A DNA stretch of 64,000 bases from Escherichia virus TH15, in sequence record MT446392.1, one strand, 5' to 3'. The position numbers and the translations under genes are program-made. Of the stretch, positions 8,361 through 61,346 are shown piece after piece (position 1 is the first letter of the stretch; every line of letters starts with the position of its first letter). A model generated the notes under the pieces. It was not told where the DNA came from and made no database searches. It saw nothing but the letters and a program-made list of their open reading frames with translations.

Positions 8361-9033
8361 AATTAATTGCGATTGTGGGTAAAAAACGCAGTGGTAAAGA
8401 TACGACTGCTGATTATGTTATTAGTCAAAACGGAACAAAGTGGCAACTTGCTGGTCCAATTAAAGAAGCGCTTTATAAAGCGTGGGTTCGTCAAGACCTG
8501 CCACACAATTTGACCCTGGAAAATTTTGATGGACAAGGTTATGACCGTGAAAAAACATTGATAATGAACAACACCGAAGCTCATATTCTTCTGGTTGATG
8601 CTCTTGAATGGTTAAAACAACAATATAATCTTGACCTTCCGAATCCAGATATGGTTCGTAAAATCATTGAATTTCACACACTAAATAATGTTGAGCCCTG
8701 GACAGTTAGACGTTTCATGCAGACCCTTGGAACTGACATCGTTTGTACAGAGTTCGACAGCATGTTTTGGATTAAAACTTTTGCATGCGATTATCTTGAC
8801 AACCTCTATTCTGGATATAAATATTACGTTGTCCCAGATGTTCGCCAAAAGAACGAACTTGATTCGCTTCGGGCGATGGGTGCTACAATAATCTTTGTAG
8901 AGCGCGATGAAGCAAATCATTCTACTGATACACACATTACGGAAGCTGGACTTCCACCACTAGCTAGTGACATTGTTATTAAAAACGATGGCACACTCGA
9001 AGAACTTTTTGATAAAATTAATAAGGTAATATA

Positions 9034-9034
<1 letters not shown>
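8357..9034 (+). CDS. 1: deoxynucleoside monophosphate kinase gp1
   Basis: 225 aa; N-terminal P-loop GKKRSGKDT; position between genes 3 and 57A as in T4. Confidence 0.8.
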
Positions 9035-9724
<690 letters not shown>

Positions 9725-9725
<1 letters not shown>

Positions 9726-9764
9726 TGTACAAATGAGTGTAGGTGCAGTATTATGTTCCTACAC
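9725..9764 (+). promoter_or_regulatory. early promoter cassette: -35 GTGTAC, -10 TATTAT bracketed by inverted repeat GTGTAGG/CCTACAC
   Basis: GTGTAC, 18-nt spacer, TATTAT; 7-bp inverted repeat flanks the -10; the ATG at 9753 lies inside the -10. Confidence 0.55.
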
Positions 9765-9785
9765 CAACGAACAAACGGAGTTAAA

Positions 9786-10118
9786 ATGAACATCAAGACT
9801 TATAACGAGTTTTTAGTCGAATCCGCCATCAATGAGACCAAATCAATTGATGATAGTGAAGGCTCTCTGAAATTTGGTTTATCCAAAAATGCAGATGGTG
9901 TTTTCTTTCAGATTGGTAATGAACGTTTTCAAACGTCCAAATATTCCAAAGCTGCAGTTGAAGCTGTCCTGAAATCTGGTGGCAAGTGGAAAGGCAAAGA
10001 AGGTACTAAAGAAATTGGTATCGCTGTTGACGGCGGTATGGCTTATTTCAAAATTGGTGATGAACAATTCATTATGTCTGCTCGCGGACGTAAAGAACTT
10101 GCAAAACTTTATAAATAA
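9786..10118 (+). CDS. internal-protein-like protein with capsid targeting sequence (MNIKTYNEFLVE)
   Basis: Start placed at Met 12 of ORF 9753..10118 (SD acggag); N-terminus matches the T4 IP capsid-targeting motif M-K-T-Y/F-x-E-F-x-x-E. Confidence 0.6.
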   Translation: MNIKTYNEFLVESAINETKSIDDSEGSLKFGLSKNADGVFFQIGNERFQTSKYSKAAVEAVLKSGGKWKGKEGTKEIGIAVDGGMAYFKIGDEQFIMSARGRKELAKLYK

Positions 10119-10126
10119 GGTTTCTT

Positions 10127-10399
10127 ATGAAAACTTTCAATGAATTTTTCAACGAGTCCCAACTGAATGAAGAAGTAAAAATTAGTAAATCAGTCAAAGC
10201 TATGATTGACAATATCAATCACCTGTATAGCATTGACTTAACTGACCATATAACAATTGGCAACAAACGCAACTTTTTCGCGTTTGACATTTCAGAACTT
10301 GACCAGAACCAAATTAATAACATTGAGCGTTTTGCCAATGATAAGGGTCTCCGCCACGAGACAGCTGGTTATAAAAAATATGCAATTTATCTAAAATAG
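10127..10399 (+). CDS. internal-protein-like protein with capsid targeting sequence (MKTFNEFFNE)
   Basis: 90 aa; CTS-type N-terminus. Confidence 0.6.
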   Translation: MKTFNEFFNESQLNEEVKISKSVKAMIDNINHLYSIDLTDHITIGNKRNFFAFDISELDQNQINNIERFANDKGLRHETAGYKKYAIYLK

Positions 10400-10407
10400 G
10401 ATTTCAA

Positions 10408-10707
10408 ATGCAAACTTTTCATGAATTTTTGGTAGAAAACAATTACCTGGCGGAAGCAAAAACCTGGCCTCTGGGCCTTCAGAAGAAAAACACCTACAAA
10501 TGGGTTGACTTCAAAGGCAAAGGCGACGCTGAAGACTTTGACCAGCTGCGTAAAAATGGTTATACCTTCCTTGACTCTAACTATAATAAAATTACCTCAT
10601 TTGGTCAGAAATCCAGCATCGCATATATTGAAACTGGTAAAAACACCCCTAAGAACATCACTGACGACTTCGCAGCTTATGGCGTGATTCGCGGTTCAAA
10701 AATGTAA
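10408..10707 (+). CDS. internal-protein-like protein with capsid targeting sequence (MQTFHEFLVE)
   Basis: 99 aa; CTS-type N-terminus. Confidence 0.6.
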   Translation: MQTFHEFLVENNYLAEAKTWPLGLQKKNTYKWVDFKGKGDAEDFDQLRKNGYTFLDSNYNKITSFGQKSSIAYIETGKNTPKNITDDFAAYGVIRGSKM

Positions 10708-10742
10708 TGTACATGATGGGATAACTGCAGTATAATTATCCC
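10707..10742 (+). promoter_or_regulatory. early promoter cassette: -35 ATGTAC, -10 TATAAT inside palindrome GGGATA...TATCCC
   Basis: -35-like hexamer, 18-nt spacer, TATAAT; GGGATA(n6)TATAAT-TATCCC palindrome; leader ATCAACTACTGGAG. Confidence 0.6.
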
Positions 10743-10762
10743 ATCAACTACTGGAGCTACTA

Positions 10763-11041
10763 ATGAAAACTTATCAAGAATTTATTAACGAATCAATTAG
10801 TCACCCGGATATGCTGGAAGACCTGAAAGGACATCTGATGGTTAAGGCCAAACCGGTTGATGGTGGCGCATTTGAGTTGTTTCTTGTTAAAGGCGAAAAC
10901 GGTCCTGATAACAAGAAAGTTTCAGCAATGATGTTGACTAAAGGTTACAAAGTCAGTTCTTCCTGGAATGCTCCATTCACTTACGCGGTAAGCCCTCGTG
11001 AACTGAAAAAAGTTAAAGCTGGACAATATACAAAAATTTAG
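10763..11041 (+). CDS. internal-protein-like protein with capsid targeting sequence (MKTYQEFINE)
   Basis: 92 aa; N-terminus matches the T4 IPI/IPII/IPIII targeting peptide. Confidence 0.65.
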   Translation: MKTYQEFINESISHPDMLEDLKGHLMVKAKPVDGGAFELFLVKGENGPDNKKVSAMMLTKGYKVSSSWNAPFTYAVSPRELKKVKAGQYTKI

Positions 11042-11076
11042 TGTACGTGATGGGATAGTTGCAGTATAATTATCCC
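11041..11076 (+). promoter_or_regulatory. early promoter cassette: -35 GTGTAC, -10 TATAAT inside palindrome GGGATA...TATCCC
   Basis: Near-identical copy (about 85 bp) of the cassette at 10707 including the first codons of the downstream gene. Confidence 0.6.
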
Positions 11077-11096
11077 ATCAACTACTGGAGCTACTA

Positions 11097-11351
11097 ATGA
11101 AAACTTATCAAGAATTTATTAACGAAGCCGCAGATGCAAAAGTTGAGTTTGCTTACGTTGGTTCCCCGCGCGGCAGTTTTTCTAATGAAGAATTCCGTCG
11201 TTCACTGGACAATTTCATGCAGTTAAGTGCTGAAGTATCGCATGATGGCCGTTATGACATCGTTACTATTAGCGGTTCTGAAGACCTTATCAAAAAGTGG
11301 TACAAGCAGAAAGATGTTGAGATGCGTTACTATCGTATCCCTAAAAAATAA
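11097..11351 (+). CDS. internal-protein-like protein with capsid targeting sequence (MKTYQEFINE)
   Basis: 84 aa; CTS-type N-terminus. Confidence 0.65.
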   Translation: MKTYQEFINEAADAKVEFAYVGSPRGSFSNEEFRRSLDNFMQLSAEVSHDGRYDIVTISGSEDLIKKWYKQKDVEMRYYRIPKK

Positions 11352-11386
11352 GTGTACATTTGAATGGGATAGCGTATAATTATCCC
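11352..11386 (+). promoter_or_regulatory. early promoter cassette: -35 GTGTAC, -10 TATAAT inside palindrome GGGATA...TATCCC
   Basis: GTGTAC, 17-nt spacer, TATAAT; palindrome; leader ATCAACTACTGAGGAG. Confidence 0.6.
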
Positions 11387-11408
11387 ATCAACTACTGAGG
11401 AGAATAAA

Positions 11409-11594
11409 ATGAAACGTTGCGAATTAATTAGAAATGTTACTGCCATTGTTGCTGTTACCGCTTTTGGTTTTAGCATGTTTGCTGGCTTTATGTTGAATAT
11501 GCTTTCAACTTCTGAGAATATAATCTCTTTAGTAGTGGCATTCTTAATTGGTTCAATCTCTTTTGTTATGGATAAAATCTCTAAAGGTGAGTAA
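11409..11594 (+). CDS. small hydrophobic protein (two predicted TM segments)
   Basis: 61-aa ORF behind a promoter cassette with SD. Confidence 0.45.
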   Translation: MKRCELIRNVTAIVAVTAFGFSMFAGFMLNMLSTSENIISLVVAFLIGSISFVMDKISKGE

Positions 11595-11595
11595 A

Positions 11596-11976
11596 ATGTA
11601 TAAAGTGTACGCGGATTATCAGGCAAACCCATCTGACAAACCAGAATGTCAAATTGGGTGGGCGCATGACACCCTGCTTGAAGCGGTAGATAACGCCCAG
11701 AAATTAGGATATAGTTACGTAGATATTGTTCAACCATCTGGAACGGTTATTACTCTTGAAGAATTCAAGAATATCAAAACAAACTTTTTACTCTTTGCTG
11801 GCGATAGCTATTATCCCCGGGGCGGTTATGCAGACCTAATCGCAAAAGCCGCTACCGAAGATGAACTGCGTGATATCATTAAAGAAAACGAGAATAAGCC
11901 TCAATATGGTTCTAACCGTTTTGACTGGTGGCAGATTGTTAATGCCAATACTCATACTATTGTTGATGAAGGTTGA
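11596..11976 (+). CDS. hypothetical protein
   Basis: ORF 11548..11976; start placed at Met 17 (MYKVYADY...) directly after the stop of the upstream ORF. Confidence 0.45.
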   Translation: MYKVYADYQANPSDKPECQIGWAHDTLLEAVDNAQKLGYSYVDIVQPSGTVITLEEFKNIKTNFLLFAGDSYYPRGGYADLIAKAATEDELRDIIKENENKPQYGSNRFDWWQIVNANTHTIVDEG

Positions 11977-12455
11977 TTATGAATATTAAATTTGGTCAGA
12001 CCATCCCTAAAGGTTATGTGATTGAAATTGAAACCTGGGAAAATGATGGTGACAACTATAAAACCCAGACAATATTTGGTGTAGAAGAACAAGAAATCCA
12101 GCAGTACAAATATATCCTGGAACTTTTTCAAGGCTCTCATTGTAACTATCCAGATAAATGTGGTAATTCAGAATGGGACGTAGTTAAAGACTTTCTTATC
12201 GCACACATTGAATCTGGTGTAAAATCTGGTCAATTAACTCCTGAATTCATTAACAAAACACTTTGTATTGAAAATCTGGAAAACCTGGTTGAAGGTGACA
12301 ACGGCCAGGAATTTGAATTATTGTGTTCTCTCCAGGAATTGCTGGGCGAGCCGGTGGAATATGATAGCGTTTTGCGCGTAGTTTCGTGGGTAAAATTATA
12401 CATCATCGAAGAAGAAATCCAAATACCAAACGTTAAAGCACTTAATATGCTTTAA
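11973..12455 (+). CDS. hypothetical protein
   Basis: 160-aa ORF, start overlaps upstream stop (possible start at 11979). Confidence 0.45.
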   Translation: MIMNIKFGQTIPKGYVIEIETWENDGDNYKTQTIFGVEEQEIQQYKYILELFQGSHCNYPDKCGNSEWDVVKDFLIAHIESGVKSGQLTPEFINKTLCIENLENLVEGDNGQEFELLCSLQELLGEPVEYDSVLRVVSWVKLYIIEEEIQIPNVKALNML

Positions 12456-12533
12456 GAGTTATGTGTTATTATTAATAAGTACCCTCTATTACCAAAGGTT
12501 CTTCCCTCAAAGAACCTCTCATAATAGAATTAA

Positions 12534-12607
12534 GGCCCTGTAGCTGGACGGTCAAGCGAGCGACTCATAATCGCTGGATGGTGGTTCGATTCCACCCAGG
12601 GCCACCA
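12534..12607 (+). tRNA. tRNA with anticodon CAU (Met, or Ile if lysidine-modified)
   Basis: Hand-folded cloverleaf: acceptor GGCCCTG/CAGGGCC, anticodon stem AGCGA/TCGCT with loop CTCATAA, T-arm GGTGG-TTCGATT-CCACC, encoded CCA. Confidence 0.7.
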
Positions 12608-12741
12608 AACTTATTTTAAATTATCATGGCGATAGGTATTGTAGATGCGGTTCGATTCCGTCCGGGGTAAGTGCCCTAGCATGCTTGGAGCATGAGTGAC
12701 TTAATATTGGTGGTTCGAGTCCACCCCGCTATGAACAAACA
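12608..12741 (+). other. tRNA-like remnants or small structured RNA: two T-arm-like hairpins without a complete cloverleaf
   Basis: GCGG-TTCGATT-CCGT (about 12647-12661) and GGTGG-TTCGAGT-CCACC (about 12709-12725); no matching acceptor strands found by hand. Confidence 0.3.
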
Positions 12742-12817
12742 CGAGGCATAGCTCAGAAGGAAGAGCAAGGACCTTCTAAGTCCTAGGTCGTAGGTTCGAT
12801 TCCTACTGTCTCGACCA
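12742..12817 (+). tRNA. tRNA-Arg (anticodon UCU)
   Basis: Hand-folded cloverleaf: acceptor CGAGGCA/TGTCTCG (one G-U), D-arm GCTC/GAGC with GG loop, anticodon loop CTTCTAA, T-arm GTAGG-TTCGATT-CCTAC, encoded CCA. Confidence 0.75.
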
Positions 12818-13132
12818 AACAAGAAACCGGGTCGCTACCGGTAAGTCGTCGGACTGAAGTTCCCTGTTTAAGGACTGACATTAATAAATCTTTATGTTTT
12901 GTTAATGACCCCTTATCTCACAGCTGAAACGGCGCACCTAATTATCGATTCGAGGAAATATCTTTGCCGTAAGCCGAGTGGCGTTTTTGACGGAACGTTC
13001 GGATATGGTCGAGATATGGCCTTTTAAAAATATTGAGTAGCGTCAACTACTTGATAACCGGGTTCGAATCCCGGCGTATCGTACAAACACTTGCCTAGCA
13101 GGTGGAACCCCGACAAGGTTACCCTAGGTTAA

Positions 13133-13161
13133 AGCCCCTCCCGAAAGGTTGGGGCTTTTTT
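13133..13161 (+). terminator. rho-independent terminator after the tRNA/RNA cluster
   Basis: Hairpin AGCCCC-(12 nt loop)-GGGGCT followed by TTTTTT. Confidence 0.6.
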
Positions 13162-13168
13162 ATAAATA
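13161..13168 (+). promoter_or_regulatory. possible late promoter TATAAATA
   Basis: Exact TATAAATA about 27 nt upstream of the ATG at 13195. Confidence 0.3.
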
Positions 13169-13194
13169 TAACGTACCCATAACTAAGGAAATTT

Positions 13195-13749
13195 ATGAAA
13201 CTTTTAAAATATCTAAGCTGGATTCTGTTAGTGCCACTGGATTTCATTTCAATGATTCTGGCTGTTATCCTTGCACCATTTGTAGTGCCGTTCCATAACA
13301 AAAAGACTGGTAAGCTTCCGTTCGGATTTGACTGGATGATGACATACGATAATCCAATTGATGGTGACCGTGGTCATGTTAAACGTTGGGAAAAAATCAG
13401 AAAATGGCCGTTAGGTGTTTACTTCCAGCGAGTGGCCTGGCTCTGGCGAAATAAAGCCTACAATTTTGCTTATCATAAGCTGGGTCGCGATTGCGATTCT
13501 AAATTCCATTATAAAGGTAATCCTGATGTTGAATCGGGCTCCCCGGATAAAGCTCACCATGGCTGGCTCTGGATGTGGAATGATAATGCATGGGGCGTGT
13601 TCGCTTCCGTACCTTATCTTAAAGTTGGTGGAATCACCTTTTATCTGCGCGTGTATTGCGGTTGGAAGCTCAAAAGTCTTCTGTCCCGTCCTATCCCGAA
13701 AGCTATGTTAGCCTTTCATATCAATCCCTTCCGTTTTTATAAGAACTAA
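13195..13749 (+). CDS. hypothetical membrane-anchored protein
   Basis: 184 aa; N-terminal hydrophobic segment; SD ctaaggaaa upstream. Confidence 0.5.
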   Translation: MKLLKYLSWILLVPLDFISMILAVILAPFVVPFHNKKTGKLPFGFDWMMTYDNPIDGDRGHVKRWEKIRKWPLGVYFQRVAWLWRNKAYNFAYHKLGRDCDSKFHYKGNPDVESGSPDKAHHGWLWMWNDNAWGVFASVPYLKVGGITFYLRVYCGWKLKSLLSRPIPKAMLAFHINPFRFYKN

Positions 13750-23007: not shown

Positions 23008-23424
23008 ATGACTCGCATTAATTTAACCCTGGTATCTGAACTTGCTGACCAACACCTTATGGCTGAATACCGCGAGCTTCCTCGCGTGTTTGGTGCTGTT
23101 CGTAAGCATGTGCAAAATGGTAAAAAGGTGTCTGACTTTAAAATCCCATCATCTTTTCTTTTAGGAACTGGTCATGTCACCTTCTTTTATGATAAGCTTT
23201 TGTTCCTTAAAAACCGTCATCAAGAACTTATTGCTGAATGTTTAAAGCGAGGGTTTAATATAAAAGATATTTCTACCCAAGATTTAAATGATATTCCTGA
23301 TGAATGGAAGAATGATTATCAACCATCAATCTGGTCAATTGAAATCAGTCAATCCAGACTGAATGAGAAAATTTCTCAAAAGCCTACCTGGTACAAATAC
23401 TATGGGAAAGCTGTGTACGCTTAA
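23008..23424 (+). CDS. denV: endonuclease V (pyrimidine dimer DNA glycosylase) DenV
   Basis: 138 aa; [34 protein letters not shown]... closely parallels T4 DenV, same length. Confidence 0.9.
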
Positions 23425-23442
23425 CTAAAAAGGTTGTATAAT
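23413..23442 (+). promoter_or_regulatory. early promoter cassette inside the 3' end of denV: -35 GTGTAC, -10 TATAAT
   Basis: 18-nt spacer; -10 overlaps the denV stop region; the ATG at 23434 lies inside the element. Confidence 0.45.
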
Positions 23443-23472
23443 GATTTTATCAACCAAACAATGGAATATAAA

Positions 23473-23736
23473 ATGAAAACTTATCAAGAATTTATTACTG
23501 AATCTGCCAAAGCTCCTGCTGGTTCCTTTAAAGTCCGTGCCTTCGCTGGTGATGCTGAAGACTTTGGCTCACTGAAGCGCAACGGTTATTCTTTCTTTGG
23601 TGGTGATGGTAAAGAAATTGTTACCTATGCAAAACGTCGCGAAATCGCATTCGTGGTTGCTGGTAAGAAAGTATCCCCAGAAGATATTGAAGTTGACTTT
23701 GAGACCTTTGGTATTGTTTCTGGCGGTAAAGCTTAA
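23473..23736 (+). CDS. internal-protein-like protein with capsid targeting sequence (MKTYQEFITE)
   Basis: Start at Met 14 of ORF 23434..23736; CTS-type N-terminus; position matches T4 ipII/ipIII near denV. Confidence 0.6.
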   Translation: MKTYQEFITESAKAPAGSFKVRAFAGDAEDFGSLKRNGYSFFGGDGKEIVTYAKRREIAFVVAGKKVSPEDIEVDFETFGIVSGGKA

Positions 23737-23738
23737 CT

Positions 23739-23767
23739 GTTTACTTTATGATGGGATAGTGTATAAT
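23739..23767 (+). promoter_or_regulatory. early promoter cassette whose -10 overlaps the start codon of the next gene
   Basis: -35 GTTTAC, 17-nt spacer, GGGATA, TATAAT; the ATG at 23766 is formed by the last two bases of TATAAT plus G. Confidence 0.5.
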
Positions 23768-24065
23768 GTTAACTTATCAAGAATTTATCACAGAAGCCAA
23801 AGTTCCTAAAGCATTTCAAATTGGGGTTCAAGGCAATTTAGACCAACAATATGTTGATGCTATTGTAGCAAGCCTCGGTAAACAAGGGGTGCAAGTGGAT
23901 TTGGTTGATTTTACCAAAGGCAATACTTTTAATATTGTTACATCTAAAGGTTCTTTAGCTAAAGTTAAAAAGGCCTTTGGCGTAGCACAAGCATACGAAA
24001 TCGACCATTCTGAATTCGAAAATAAAGGTCGCCAGAACACAATTAAAGGCTCTGGTTCTTTTTAA
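23766..24065 (+). CDS. internal-protein-like protein with capsid targeting sequence (MLTYQEFITE); leader deleted
   Basis: 99 aa; CTS N-terminus with K2L change; no SD, ATG inside the upstream -10. Confidence 0.5.
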   Translation: MLTYQEFITEAKVPKAFQIGVQGNLDQQYVDAIVASLGKQGVQVDLVDFTKGNTFNIVTSKGSLAKVKKAFGVAQAYEIDHSEFENKGRQNTIKGSGSF

Positions 24066-24229
24066 TAAAGGCAAACCGACCCTCTCCTCATGAACGTCGT
24101 GTCCTCTGAGTGATGGACCTTTCCCTACCTGTAATAAGGTCGAGCCCGAGTGCGGTAAGGGGTTTACATTCGGATACATGGATGAATTAATGTGCCAAGG
24201 AATGGCCCCAAAACCTTAAGAGAAACAAT

Positions 24230-29816: not shown

Positions 29817-29852
29817 GTTTACATCCTCATAAAAAGGGTGTACTATTATCCC
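29817..29852 (+). promoter_or_regulatory. early promoter cassette: -35 GTTTAC, -10 TACTAT, TATCCC half-site
   Basis: 18-nt spacer; leader ATCAACTACTGAGGAG. Confidence 0.5.
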
Positions 29853-29874
29853 ATCAACTACTGAGGAGAACACA

Positions 29875-41584: not shown

Positions 41585-41618
41585 AGGGGTGTACAAGCCC
41601 CTTTGAATGATGTATCAT
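41585..41618 (+). promoter_or_regulatory. overlapping terminator hairpin and early promoter (-35 GTGTAC in the hairpin loop, -10 TATCAT)
   Basis: AGGGG-TGTACAAG-CCCCT hairpin; GTGTAC, 18-nt spacer, TATCAT; ATGAT/ATCAT inverted repeat around the -10. Confidence 0.5.
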
Positions 41619-41649
41619 TATCCCATCAACTACTGATGAGGAAAACAAA

Positions 41650-41832
41650 ATGGTTATTCAAGATAAAGAAATTAAAGTTGACCGGTATTATTCTGTAAAT
41701 GGCTATCCTGTACAGGTAACCAAAGTGACTGACCAAGATGTATGGTATCGTCCTTTGAAATGGCCTGATGCTCCGTTGATGGTGTGTGACCGTAGCTTGT
41801 TCAATACAGTTGCAAAAGGACCTAAATTATGA
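41650..41832 (+). CDS. hypothetical small protein
   Basis: 60-aa ORF with SD gaggaaa. Confidence 0.45.
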   Translation: MVIQDKEIKVDRYYSVNGYPVQVTKVTDQDVWYRPLKWPDAPLMVCDRSLFNTVAKGPKL

Positions 41833-60957: not shown

Positions 60958-60968
60958 AATATTTTAAA

Positions 60969-60989
60969 AGGGGCTTACAGCCCCTTTTT
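60969..60989 (+). terminator. rho-independent terminator after gene 41
   Basis: AGGGGC-TTACA-GCCCCT followed by TTTTTC. Confidence 0.65.
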
Positions 60990-61002
60990 CTTATGTTATA
61001 AT
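60973..61002 (+). promoter_or_regulatory. early promoter overlapping the terminator loop (-35 GCTTAC, -10 TATAAT)
   Basis: 18-nt spacer; leader GACCCTATCAACTACTGGAG. Confidence 0.45.
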
Positions 61003-61028
61003 GACCCTATCAACTACTGGAGAATAAA

Positions 61029-61346
61029 ATGAAAACTATTGATTGCAAAGCGGAATACAAAGTTTATTATCATGGCTCAAGCTCTAATGCTGGAATCCAA
61101 AATATGCTTTGCCCTCCTGATGCAACTGGTGTTCTGTCAGAAGTTGGGCGCAAGAAAAATTTAGGGCGTGTGTTTTTTACTGAAGATATTGGTTTGGCAC
61201 GTATCTATGCAGGAAGAGCAGCTCGTTCAGTGGGAGGAGAACCCCGTCTTTATCGTGTGATTGCACCTGTTGATGTGGTTTGTTTAAATGATACTAAAGG
61301 CGCAACAGTTTATCACGCAGACTGGGCGTTTTGTGAGGAAATCTAA
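61029..61346 (+). CDS. small protein with ADP-ribosyltransferase-fold-like H-G-S motif (tentative)
   Basis: 105 aa; KVYYHGSSSNAGIQNML...GRVFFTEDIGLARIYA resembles the H-G-S ... aromatic ... acidic layout of PARP/Tpt1-type folds. Confidence 0.3.
   Translation: MKTIDCKAEYKVYYHGSSSNAGIQNMLCPPDATGVLSEVGRKKNLGRVFFTEDIGLARIYAGRAARSVGGEPRLYRVIAPVDVVCLNDTKGATVYHADWAFCEEI

Follow-up and report, generated by a model that had tools for sequence, protein, structure and literature searches.

Near-identical promoter, leader, and targeting-codon repeats bracket a predicted internal-protein cassette in Escherichia virus TH15

We analysed a stretch of 64,000 nucleotides from Escherichia virus TH15 (sequence record MT446392.1; hereafter, the window), which was 96% identical to Gaprivervirus genomes (VR7, SP18, UPEC01 group; Straboviridae, Tevenvirinae). 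Between a 57B homologue and trna.4, i.e., at the ipI position of T4, the window carries an array of small genes, and ip5, ip6, ip8, and ip9 are annotated at this locus in relatives. The internal-protein (IP) cassettes found here and in relatives were labelled A to H, where F, G, and H are Ip6, Ip5, and Ip8, respectively (Table 1). Five consecutive ORFs at 9783-11351 (A to E) begin with N-termini resembling the capsid-targeting sequence (CTS), whose consensus, MKTYQEFI-x-E, closes with (L/I)-x-E, the site at which the gp21 prohead protease cuts in T4. Cassettes B, C, and E matched PHROG families annotated as 'internal head/virion protein'; in addition, C was paralogous to the gene at 23473 in a second IP locus (38% over 61 aa, E=6e-16), and E was a distant homologue of Ip6 (37% amino-acid identity, E=1e-8). 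Cassette D was an ORFan that occurred only in Gaprivervirus (17 records, all with amino-acid identities of at least 97.6%). Pfam and PDB sequence searches with D and E returned no match, and the mature parts of these two proteins were unrelated to each other (best blastp match, E=1.4 over 8 aa). Cassettes A, B, and C were tightly packed, without promoter copies of their own. In T4, the CTS and IPI* (PMC3012670) and the N-terminal packaging signal of internal proteins (PMC12373910) have been described, and Ip1, Ip2, and Ip3 each inhibit a distinct GmrSD type IV restriction enzyme (PMC12373910).

Table 1. Features of the array and of related sites in the window.
Feature	Position	Strand	Description
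57B homologue	9270..9725	+	RNA ligase/Acb1-like annotation; conserved left boundary; phrog_755
Cassette A	9783..10118	+	CTS-like N-terminus (MNIKTYNEFLVE); homologue of VR7 ORF156c; phrog_3966
Cassette B (Ip9)	10127..10399	+	MKTFNEFFNE...; internal head protein; phrog_7673, E=2e-56
Cassette C	10408..10707	+	MQTFHEFLVE...; phrog_2667
Repeat copy 1	10697..10792	+	A-tract, -35, -10, inverted repeat, leader, SD, ATG, CTS codons to Glu10
Copy 1, -35 (A)TGTAC	10707-10713	+	From the sequence
Copy 1, inverted repeat	10714-10724 / 10736-10746		11 bp, TGATGGGATAA/TTATCCCATCA; straddles -10
Copy 1, -10 TATAAT	10731-10736	+	From the sequence
Copy 1, SD GGAG	10753-10756	+	From the sequence
Copy 1, ATG; Glu10 codon	10763; 10790-10792	+	From the sequence
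Cassette D	10763..11041	+	92 aa, MKTYQEFINE|SISHPD...; bracketed gene; VR7 ORF153c; phrog_15565
Repeat copy 2	11031..11126	+	91/96 identical to copy 1
Copy 2, -35 GTGTAC; -10	11042-11047; 11065-11070	+	
Copy 2, hairpin	11048-11061/11067-11080		14 bp
Copy 2, SD GGAG; ATG	11087-11090; 11097	+	
Cassette E	11097..11351	+	84 aa, MKTYQEFINE|AADAKV...; phrog_8111
Partial repeat copy 3	11352..11408	+	Promoter, hairpin, leader; fused to trna.4 SD and ATG; no CTS
Copy 3, hairpin	11365-11372/11380-11387		Promoter TGTACA-16-TATAAT
trna.4-like gene	11409..11594	+	Small membrane protein; conserved right boundary; phrog_1692
tRNA-Met (CAT)	12534-12607		Just 3' of locus, as in T4 tRNA region
tRNA-Arg (TCT)	12742-12817		Just 3' of locus, as in T4 tRNA region
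Second IP locus	23434..24065	+	Beside denV and e; two CTS-bearing genes
Second locus, gene 1	23473-23736	+	MKTYQEFITE...; CTS-bearing
Second locus, gene 2	23766-24065	+	MLTYQEFITE...; CTS-bearing
Remote -10/leader core	29840..29863	+	2 mismatches; 5' of unrelated 67-aa ORF
Remote -10/leader core	41612..41635	+	1 mismatch; preceded by GGGG...CCCC hairpin enclosing -35; PeSL-like layout
TATCCCATCAACTACTG, exact	10737, 11071, 11381, 29847, 41619		
TATCCCATCAACTACTG, 3 mismatches	18487, 56999, 61003		

The original prediction was that near-identical direct repeats (10707-10790 and 11041-11125) bracket the gene at 10763..11041. A repeat search and direct comparison showed the repeat to be real and 96 nt long (91/96 identical, spacing 334 nt); the predicted span was correctly located as a slightly short subset of this unit, with its 3' end off by one, and the ORF expected between the copies is that of D. 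The five mismatches (10704, 10707, 10713, and 10724-10725) all lie in the 5' third, and the copies share a perfect run of 67 nt (10726-10792 and 11060-11126). Similarity is lost at both sides, namely 5' of an A-tract and directly past the GAA codon of Glu10. A 24-nt core, GTATAATTATCCCATCAACTACTG, occurs in three exact copies at 10730, 11064, and 11374, compared with 0.00 expected in shuffles. The full unit was confined to Gaprivervirus (33 records, 2-5 places each); other Tevenvirinae matched only its 31-nt CTS-coding part. Copy 3, the CTS-like starts on five ORFs, the second IP locus, and the remote leader copies described below had not been part of the prediction.

Each full copy of the repeat is organised as a module. 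Its A-rich 5' end holds the final codons and the stop of the upstream gene within the A-tract (CAAAAATNTAN), followed by a -35-like (A/G)TGTAC, a 17-bp spacer, the -10 hexamer TATAAT, and TATCCC. The 3' part consists of the leader ATCAACTACTG, a GGAG Shine-Dalgarno (SD) sequence, a six-base CTACTA spacer, and ATG with nine further codons (MKTYQEFINE); ATCAACTACTGGAG is present in each full copy, 5' of the ATG. The arrangements TGTACA-17-TATAAT and TGTACA-16-TATAAT scored 10/12 and are predicted strong sigma70-like early promoters. Under the usual 7-nt rule from the -10, transcription would start near 10743 and 11077, inside the 3' arm of a hairpin, and the hairpin could therefore form only in transcripts reading through from upstream. 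For copy 3, the predicted start is near 11387.

The -10 had been described as palindromic, and an 11-bp inverted repeat does enclose most of the TATAAT in copy 1; the stem of copy 2 reaches 14 bp because of an AC-to-GT change. The RNA folds of copies 1, 2, and 3 had energies of -15.6, -22.0, and -11.9 kcal/mol, respectively (z = -2.6, -4.4, and -2.0). No U-tract was present 3' of the hairpins in copies 1-3, and a terminator scan did not pick them up; a terminator role for these hairpins is not supported by the sequence. Among relatives, no compensatory changes were observed in the hairpin, where variants were G-U pairs or mismatches, and any importance of the stem may lie at the DNA level, or there may be none at all. 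An Rfam scan of 9000-13200 (E<=1) found nothing in the repeat, the two tRNAs being its only matches. Separately, the C-to-G junction in TH44 (L002, 1605-1660) and EAWsc9 (L007) carries a perfect palindrome, GGGGATAATTATCCCC, followed by TTTTT. This palindrome has the shape of an intrinsic terminator (-14.7 kcal/mol) and contains the arm sequence of the promoter hairpin around a loop without the -10, which suggests that the two structures are related.

Elements of the module were also found far from the array. The leader TATCCCATCAACTACTG has eight sites in the window, versus 0.15 expected. As TATCCCATCAACTACTG(A)GGAG, comprising the discriminator and 5' UTR, it precedes small, unrelated early ORFs throughout the window and resembles a promoter/leader module for early genes used genome-wide. 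GGAG, the SD of the module, is in addition the sequence that RegB of T4 cleaves. Canonical PeSL-like layouts (PeSLs, early-promoter/stem-loop elements) were observed at 41585-41650 and 60960-61030: the -35 (GTGTAC or GCTTAC) lies inside a GGGG(N)CCCC hairpin, and a T-run, a -10, the shared leader, and a small ORF come next. The second IP locus was polymorphic in length (23380-24120), spanning 741 bp in the window and approximately 448 bp in MN01, P8, and UPEC07; in VR7, VR25, and TH41, it spanned approximately 1069-1305 bp and contained an extra ip10/ip7 cassette. At the second gene of this locus (23735-23800), the start codon lies partly within the -10 hexamer (TATAATG). The segment from TATCCC through the leader and SD, together with the first codons, appears to have been deleted relative to the other copies, and there is no SD; a transcript from that promoter would consequently start inside the ORF. 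This gene may be decaying or expressed only by read-through.

The locus was compared across the window and 14 related phages, i.e., 15 genomes, of which 14 are Gaprivervirus and one, VR5, is a Dhakavirus. The original prediction had proposed such a comparison among related isolates, and the arrangement was not the same in all of them: 11 arrangements of 8 cassette types were found. These were A-B-C-D-E (window and UPEC01), A-B-C-G-D-E (TH44), A-B-C-D-F (VR7 and TH57), A-B-C-E (TH54), A-B-C-D (PSD2001 and SP18), A-B-C-G-E (EAWsc9), A-B-C-F (VR25), A-B-G-F (VR26), A-B-G-E-H (MN01 and RZ), A-B-C-G-F (TH22), and H-B (VR5). Removing 334 bp between repeats 1 and 2 from the window, i.e., losing D, gives the arrangement of TH54, to which it aligned as one gapless block (1617 nt, 96.4% identity). 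Likewise, removing 310 bp between repeats 2 and 3, i.e., losing E, gives that of PSD2001, again without gaps (1641 nt, 96.4% identity); loss and gain are not distinguishable for any single event in this 15-genome comparison. In TH44, an extra cassette (Ip5) is inserted, and in VR7 and TH57, Ip6 occupies the slot of E. The repeats had been expected to allow deletion, duplication, or replacement of the intervening cassette. Deletion-type differences are borne out by TH54 and PSD2001 and insertion differences by TH44, but no tandem cassette duplication, the reciprocal product of unequal exchange, was seen in the 15 genomes; replacement is borne out in the E slot, within the limit that the cassettes exchanged there, E and Ip6, are distant homologues. 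Cassette order was strictly collinear in the 14 Gapriverviruses (A, B, C, G, D, E or F, H), and the differences among the sequences compared are therefore of presence/absence and of allelic exchange, not of free reshuffling. One further candidate, DCP80 (PQ671644.1, a 141-kb 'complete genome' record; L015, 2190-2252), was considered as a foreign context for D and rejected: an N-run immediately 5' of the IP locus, which joins it to rnlA-side genes, is a scaffold gap, and there is no real rearrangement.

Sequence variants at the cassette junctions point to where exchange may have occurred. The stop codon and -35 side always go with the upstream cassette and the 3' end of the CTS with the downstream cassette, and the segments in between assort independently. 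The spacer between SD and ATG exists as ctacta, acaac, accac, actat, gcaac, and acagc among the genomes, independently of the cassette body. D is preceded by ctacta (window, UPEC01, PSD2001, SP18, and TH57) or acaac (VR7 and TH44); E is preceded by ctacta, accac, acaac, gcaac, or actat and has two alleles of the CTS (INEAA and ITESA). With G or D upstream alike, ITESA goes together with the gta-GTATGAT loop/-10 variant. At the D-to-trna.4 junction, PSD2001 carries window-type and SP18 UPEC01-type markers; these two phages thus differ in their D-E junction markers, which implies at least two independent events. The inferred exchange points fall into at least three zones (from the -35 to the loop, the -10/leader core, and the CTS codons), a spread that fits general homologous recombination rather than a fixed site. 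Less than 50 bp of homology is sufficient for T4 recombination (Arbiol et al., PMC2839356), and the 67-nt perfect run exceeds this requirement. A four-gamete argument based on SNPs in the -35/hairpin region was dropped: two adjacent positions show all four combinations, which makes recurrent transitions likely. Homogenisation of the spacer within genomes (concerted evolution) gave no clear signal either; the spacer is the same in both copies in the window, VR7, TH22, and EAWsc9 and differs in UPEC01, TH57, MN01, and RZ.

We consider it very probable that the repeats are adjacent copies of an IP expression-and-targeting module that doubles as portable homology for general recombination. The module would supply an early promoter with an A-rich element, a short fixed 5' UTR with GGAG, and the ten codons of MKTYQEFINE. 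In T4, the ten-residue capsid-targeting sequence directs the protein into the prohead core, where the gp21 protease cuts after Glu10. D and E would presumably be packaged and cleaved in the same way, leaving Ser11 and Ala11, respectively, as N-termini, and the variable remainder after Glu10 would be injected with the DNA, as in T4. Repeated at the nucleotide level between unrelated bodies, the module would offer the general recombination machinery of the phage, probably of the UvsX type, a portable stretch of homology; unequal or inter-genome crossovers within it would then remove, add, or swap whole self-expressed cassettes and leave their neighbours undisturbed. The anatomy of the module, the limitation of homology to it, and the existence of relatives that are the exact predicted recombination products come directly from the comparisons above, and general homologous recombination within the promoter/leader/CTS module is the most likely mechanism. 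By analogy with T4 Ip1-3, which act against GmrSD, the cassettes may have anti-defence functions. Since each T4 IP disarms a different GmrSD enzyme (PMC12373910), cassette turnover probably tunes host range. The locus is also useful for annotation, as A, C, and D are 'hypothetical' in most records despite bearing the targeting signal, and it helps in picking candidate anti-defence genes.

The bracketed cassette itself showed low diversity. The body of D (10793-11030, 238 nt) was identical in the window, UPEC01, VR7, and TH57, against differences of 2-8% in flanking genes. In the seven genomes with D, 4 of 238 sites (1.7%) were segregating, versus 74 of 1251 (5.9%) in the pooled flanks (57B, A, B, and trna.4) of the same genomes (Fisher p=0.004) and 43 of 270 (15.9%) in the adjacent C, the most diverse gene of the array (p=6e-9). 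The simplest reading is that D has a shallower genealogy and that the cassette has recently spread laterally through its flanks; alternatively, the low diversity could reflect unusual constraint. A bolder proposal, to which we assign a low probability, is that the module itself mobilises IP cassettes as a dedicated element, excising them as packaged mini-circles and driving horizontal sweeps. If this were true, the near-invariant D (1.7% vs 5.9-15.9%) would be a sweep caught in progress, and new injected anti-defence proteins would spread rapidly among co-circulating phages.

The copies could instead be alike simply because all the genes depend on one type of promoter, ribosome-binding site, and targeting peptide, with recombination playing no real part. 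Each sub-element of the repeat has a plausible function, and the leader recurs at unlinked early genes (29847 and 41619), as if it were itself under constraint. However, the identity goes beyond functional need: the spacer between SD and ATG is free to vary and yet is the same in the two copies of the window, and the ten CTS codons are synonymously identical, whereas relatives use ACA or ACG for Thr3 and AAT for Asn9. Moreover, natural relatives are exact repeat-to-repeat deletion products, and shared function without recombination is accordingly a distinctly unlikely account. We regard as very unlikely a dedicated site-specific exchange in which the promoter hairpin is the site for a recombinase or DNA-binding protein, as in integron attC sites or as has been suggested for PeSLs. 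The conserved inverted repeat of 11-14 bp in every copy would suit such a role, and Arbiol et al. raise the possibility of a protein that binds the stem-loop and report PeSL mini-circles in RB49/phi1 (PMC2839356). Against it, the exchange points are not at a single position, the collinear cassette order is what homology-guided exchange predicts, and no integrase-like gene is among the ORFs listed beside the locus. That D and E are paralogues from a tandem duplication and have diverged everywhere except at their 5' ends and upstream regions is scarcely credible: they are adjacent, similar in size (92 and 84 aa), and identical at their starts, but their mature parts are dissimilar (E=1.4 over 8 aa), the 95-100% identity of the flanks ends abruptly at codon 10, and the two occur independently in relatives.

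The repeated IP module has close counterparts in known systems. Repoila, Tetart, Bouet, and Krisch (EMBO J, 1994) reportedly described segments of roughly 70 bp and an 11-aa leader, and the capsid-targeting sequence of T4 is said to have been described by Mullaney and Black in 1996 (reviewed in PMC3012670). In the window, promoter-bearing repeats likewise lie on both sides of an ORF (10697-10792, 11031-11126, and 11352-11408), and the leader of D and E, MKTYQEFINE, as well as related leaders elsewhere, has the expected 10-11 aa ending in (L/I)-x-E. The N-terminus MKTYQEFI-x-E is that of the CTS of IPI, IPII, and IPIII of T4, with Asn or Thr at position 9 here versus Ala in T4. As summarised by Arbiol et al. 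(PMC2839356) and repeated by Comeau et al. 2014 (PMC4122927), Repoila et al. 1994 saw PeSL-like early-promoter/stem-loop elements at both variable T-even IP loci. According to these accounts, the T-even loci occupy the same slots (the 57B-side ipI and the denV/e side), every ORF has a conserved N-terminal leader, the promoter repeat lies up- and downstream of each ORF, the number and identity of the ORFs are polymorphic, and the repeats were likewise proposed to mediate exchange. The locus described here differs in being the Gaprivervirus version, in which cassettes A, C, and D fall outside the numbered Ip1-Ip10.

The analogous shuffling model for PeSLs (Arbiol 2010, PMC2839356; Comeau 2014, PMC4122927) likewise involves small non-essential ORFs flanked by an intergenic early promoter and stem-loop, and recombination between copies leads to insertion, deletion, and replacement among close relatives; crossovers have been mapped between the -10 and the SD or ATG (PMC2839356, PMC4122927). 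Recombination-based indels were also found here (TH54 and PSD2001, both gapless). In contrast to the GC-rich (polyG/polyC) terminator stem-loop that characterises PeSLs, the IP-locus stems (-11.9 to -22 kcal/mol) are AT-rich (GGGATAA/TTATCCC) and enclose the -10, with no G4...C4 terminator or U-tract, and the repeat runs 30 nt into coding sequence. Arbiol et al. regard the IP elements as analogues, not homologues, of PeSLs (PMC2839356), and, judging from their structure, the copies would work like PeSLs without being members.

Integron cassettes are similar in that small adaptive genes, unrelated and individually mobile, are arrayed with a repeated hairpin-forming element between them. Unlike integrons, which have an integrase, a fixed crossover in the hairpin, and a single Pc, the array in the window has its exchange points spread over at least three zones, no recombinase in the neighbouring ORFs, and an own promoter per cassette. 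The flanking-repeat cassette system is thus already known (Repoila et al. 1994) and ordinary for T4-type genomes; what is mildly new is limited to details, namely natural relatives that are exact recombination products, exchange zones mapped within the repeat, and the scarcity of variation in D. Overall, the window represents a clean, well-resolved example of an established mechanism rather than a new one.
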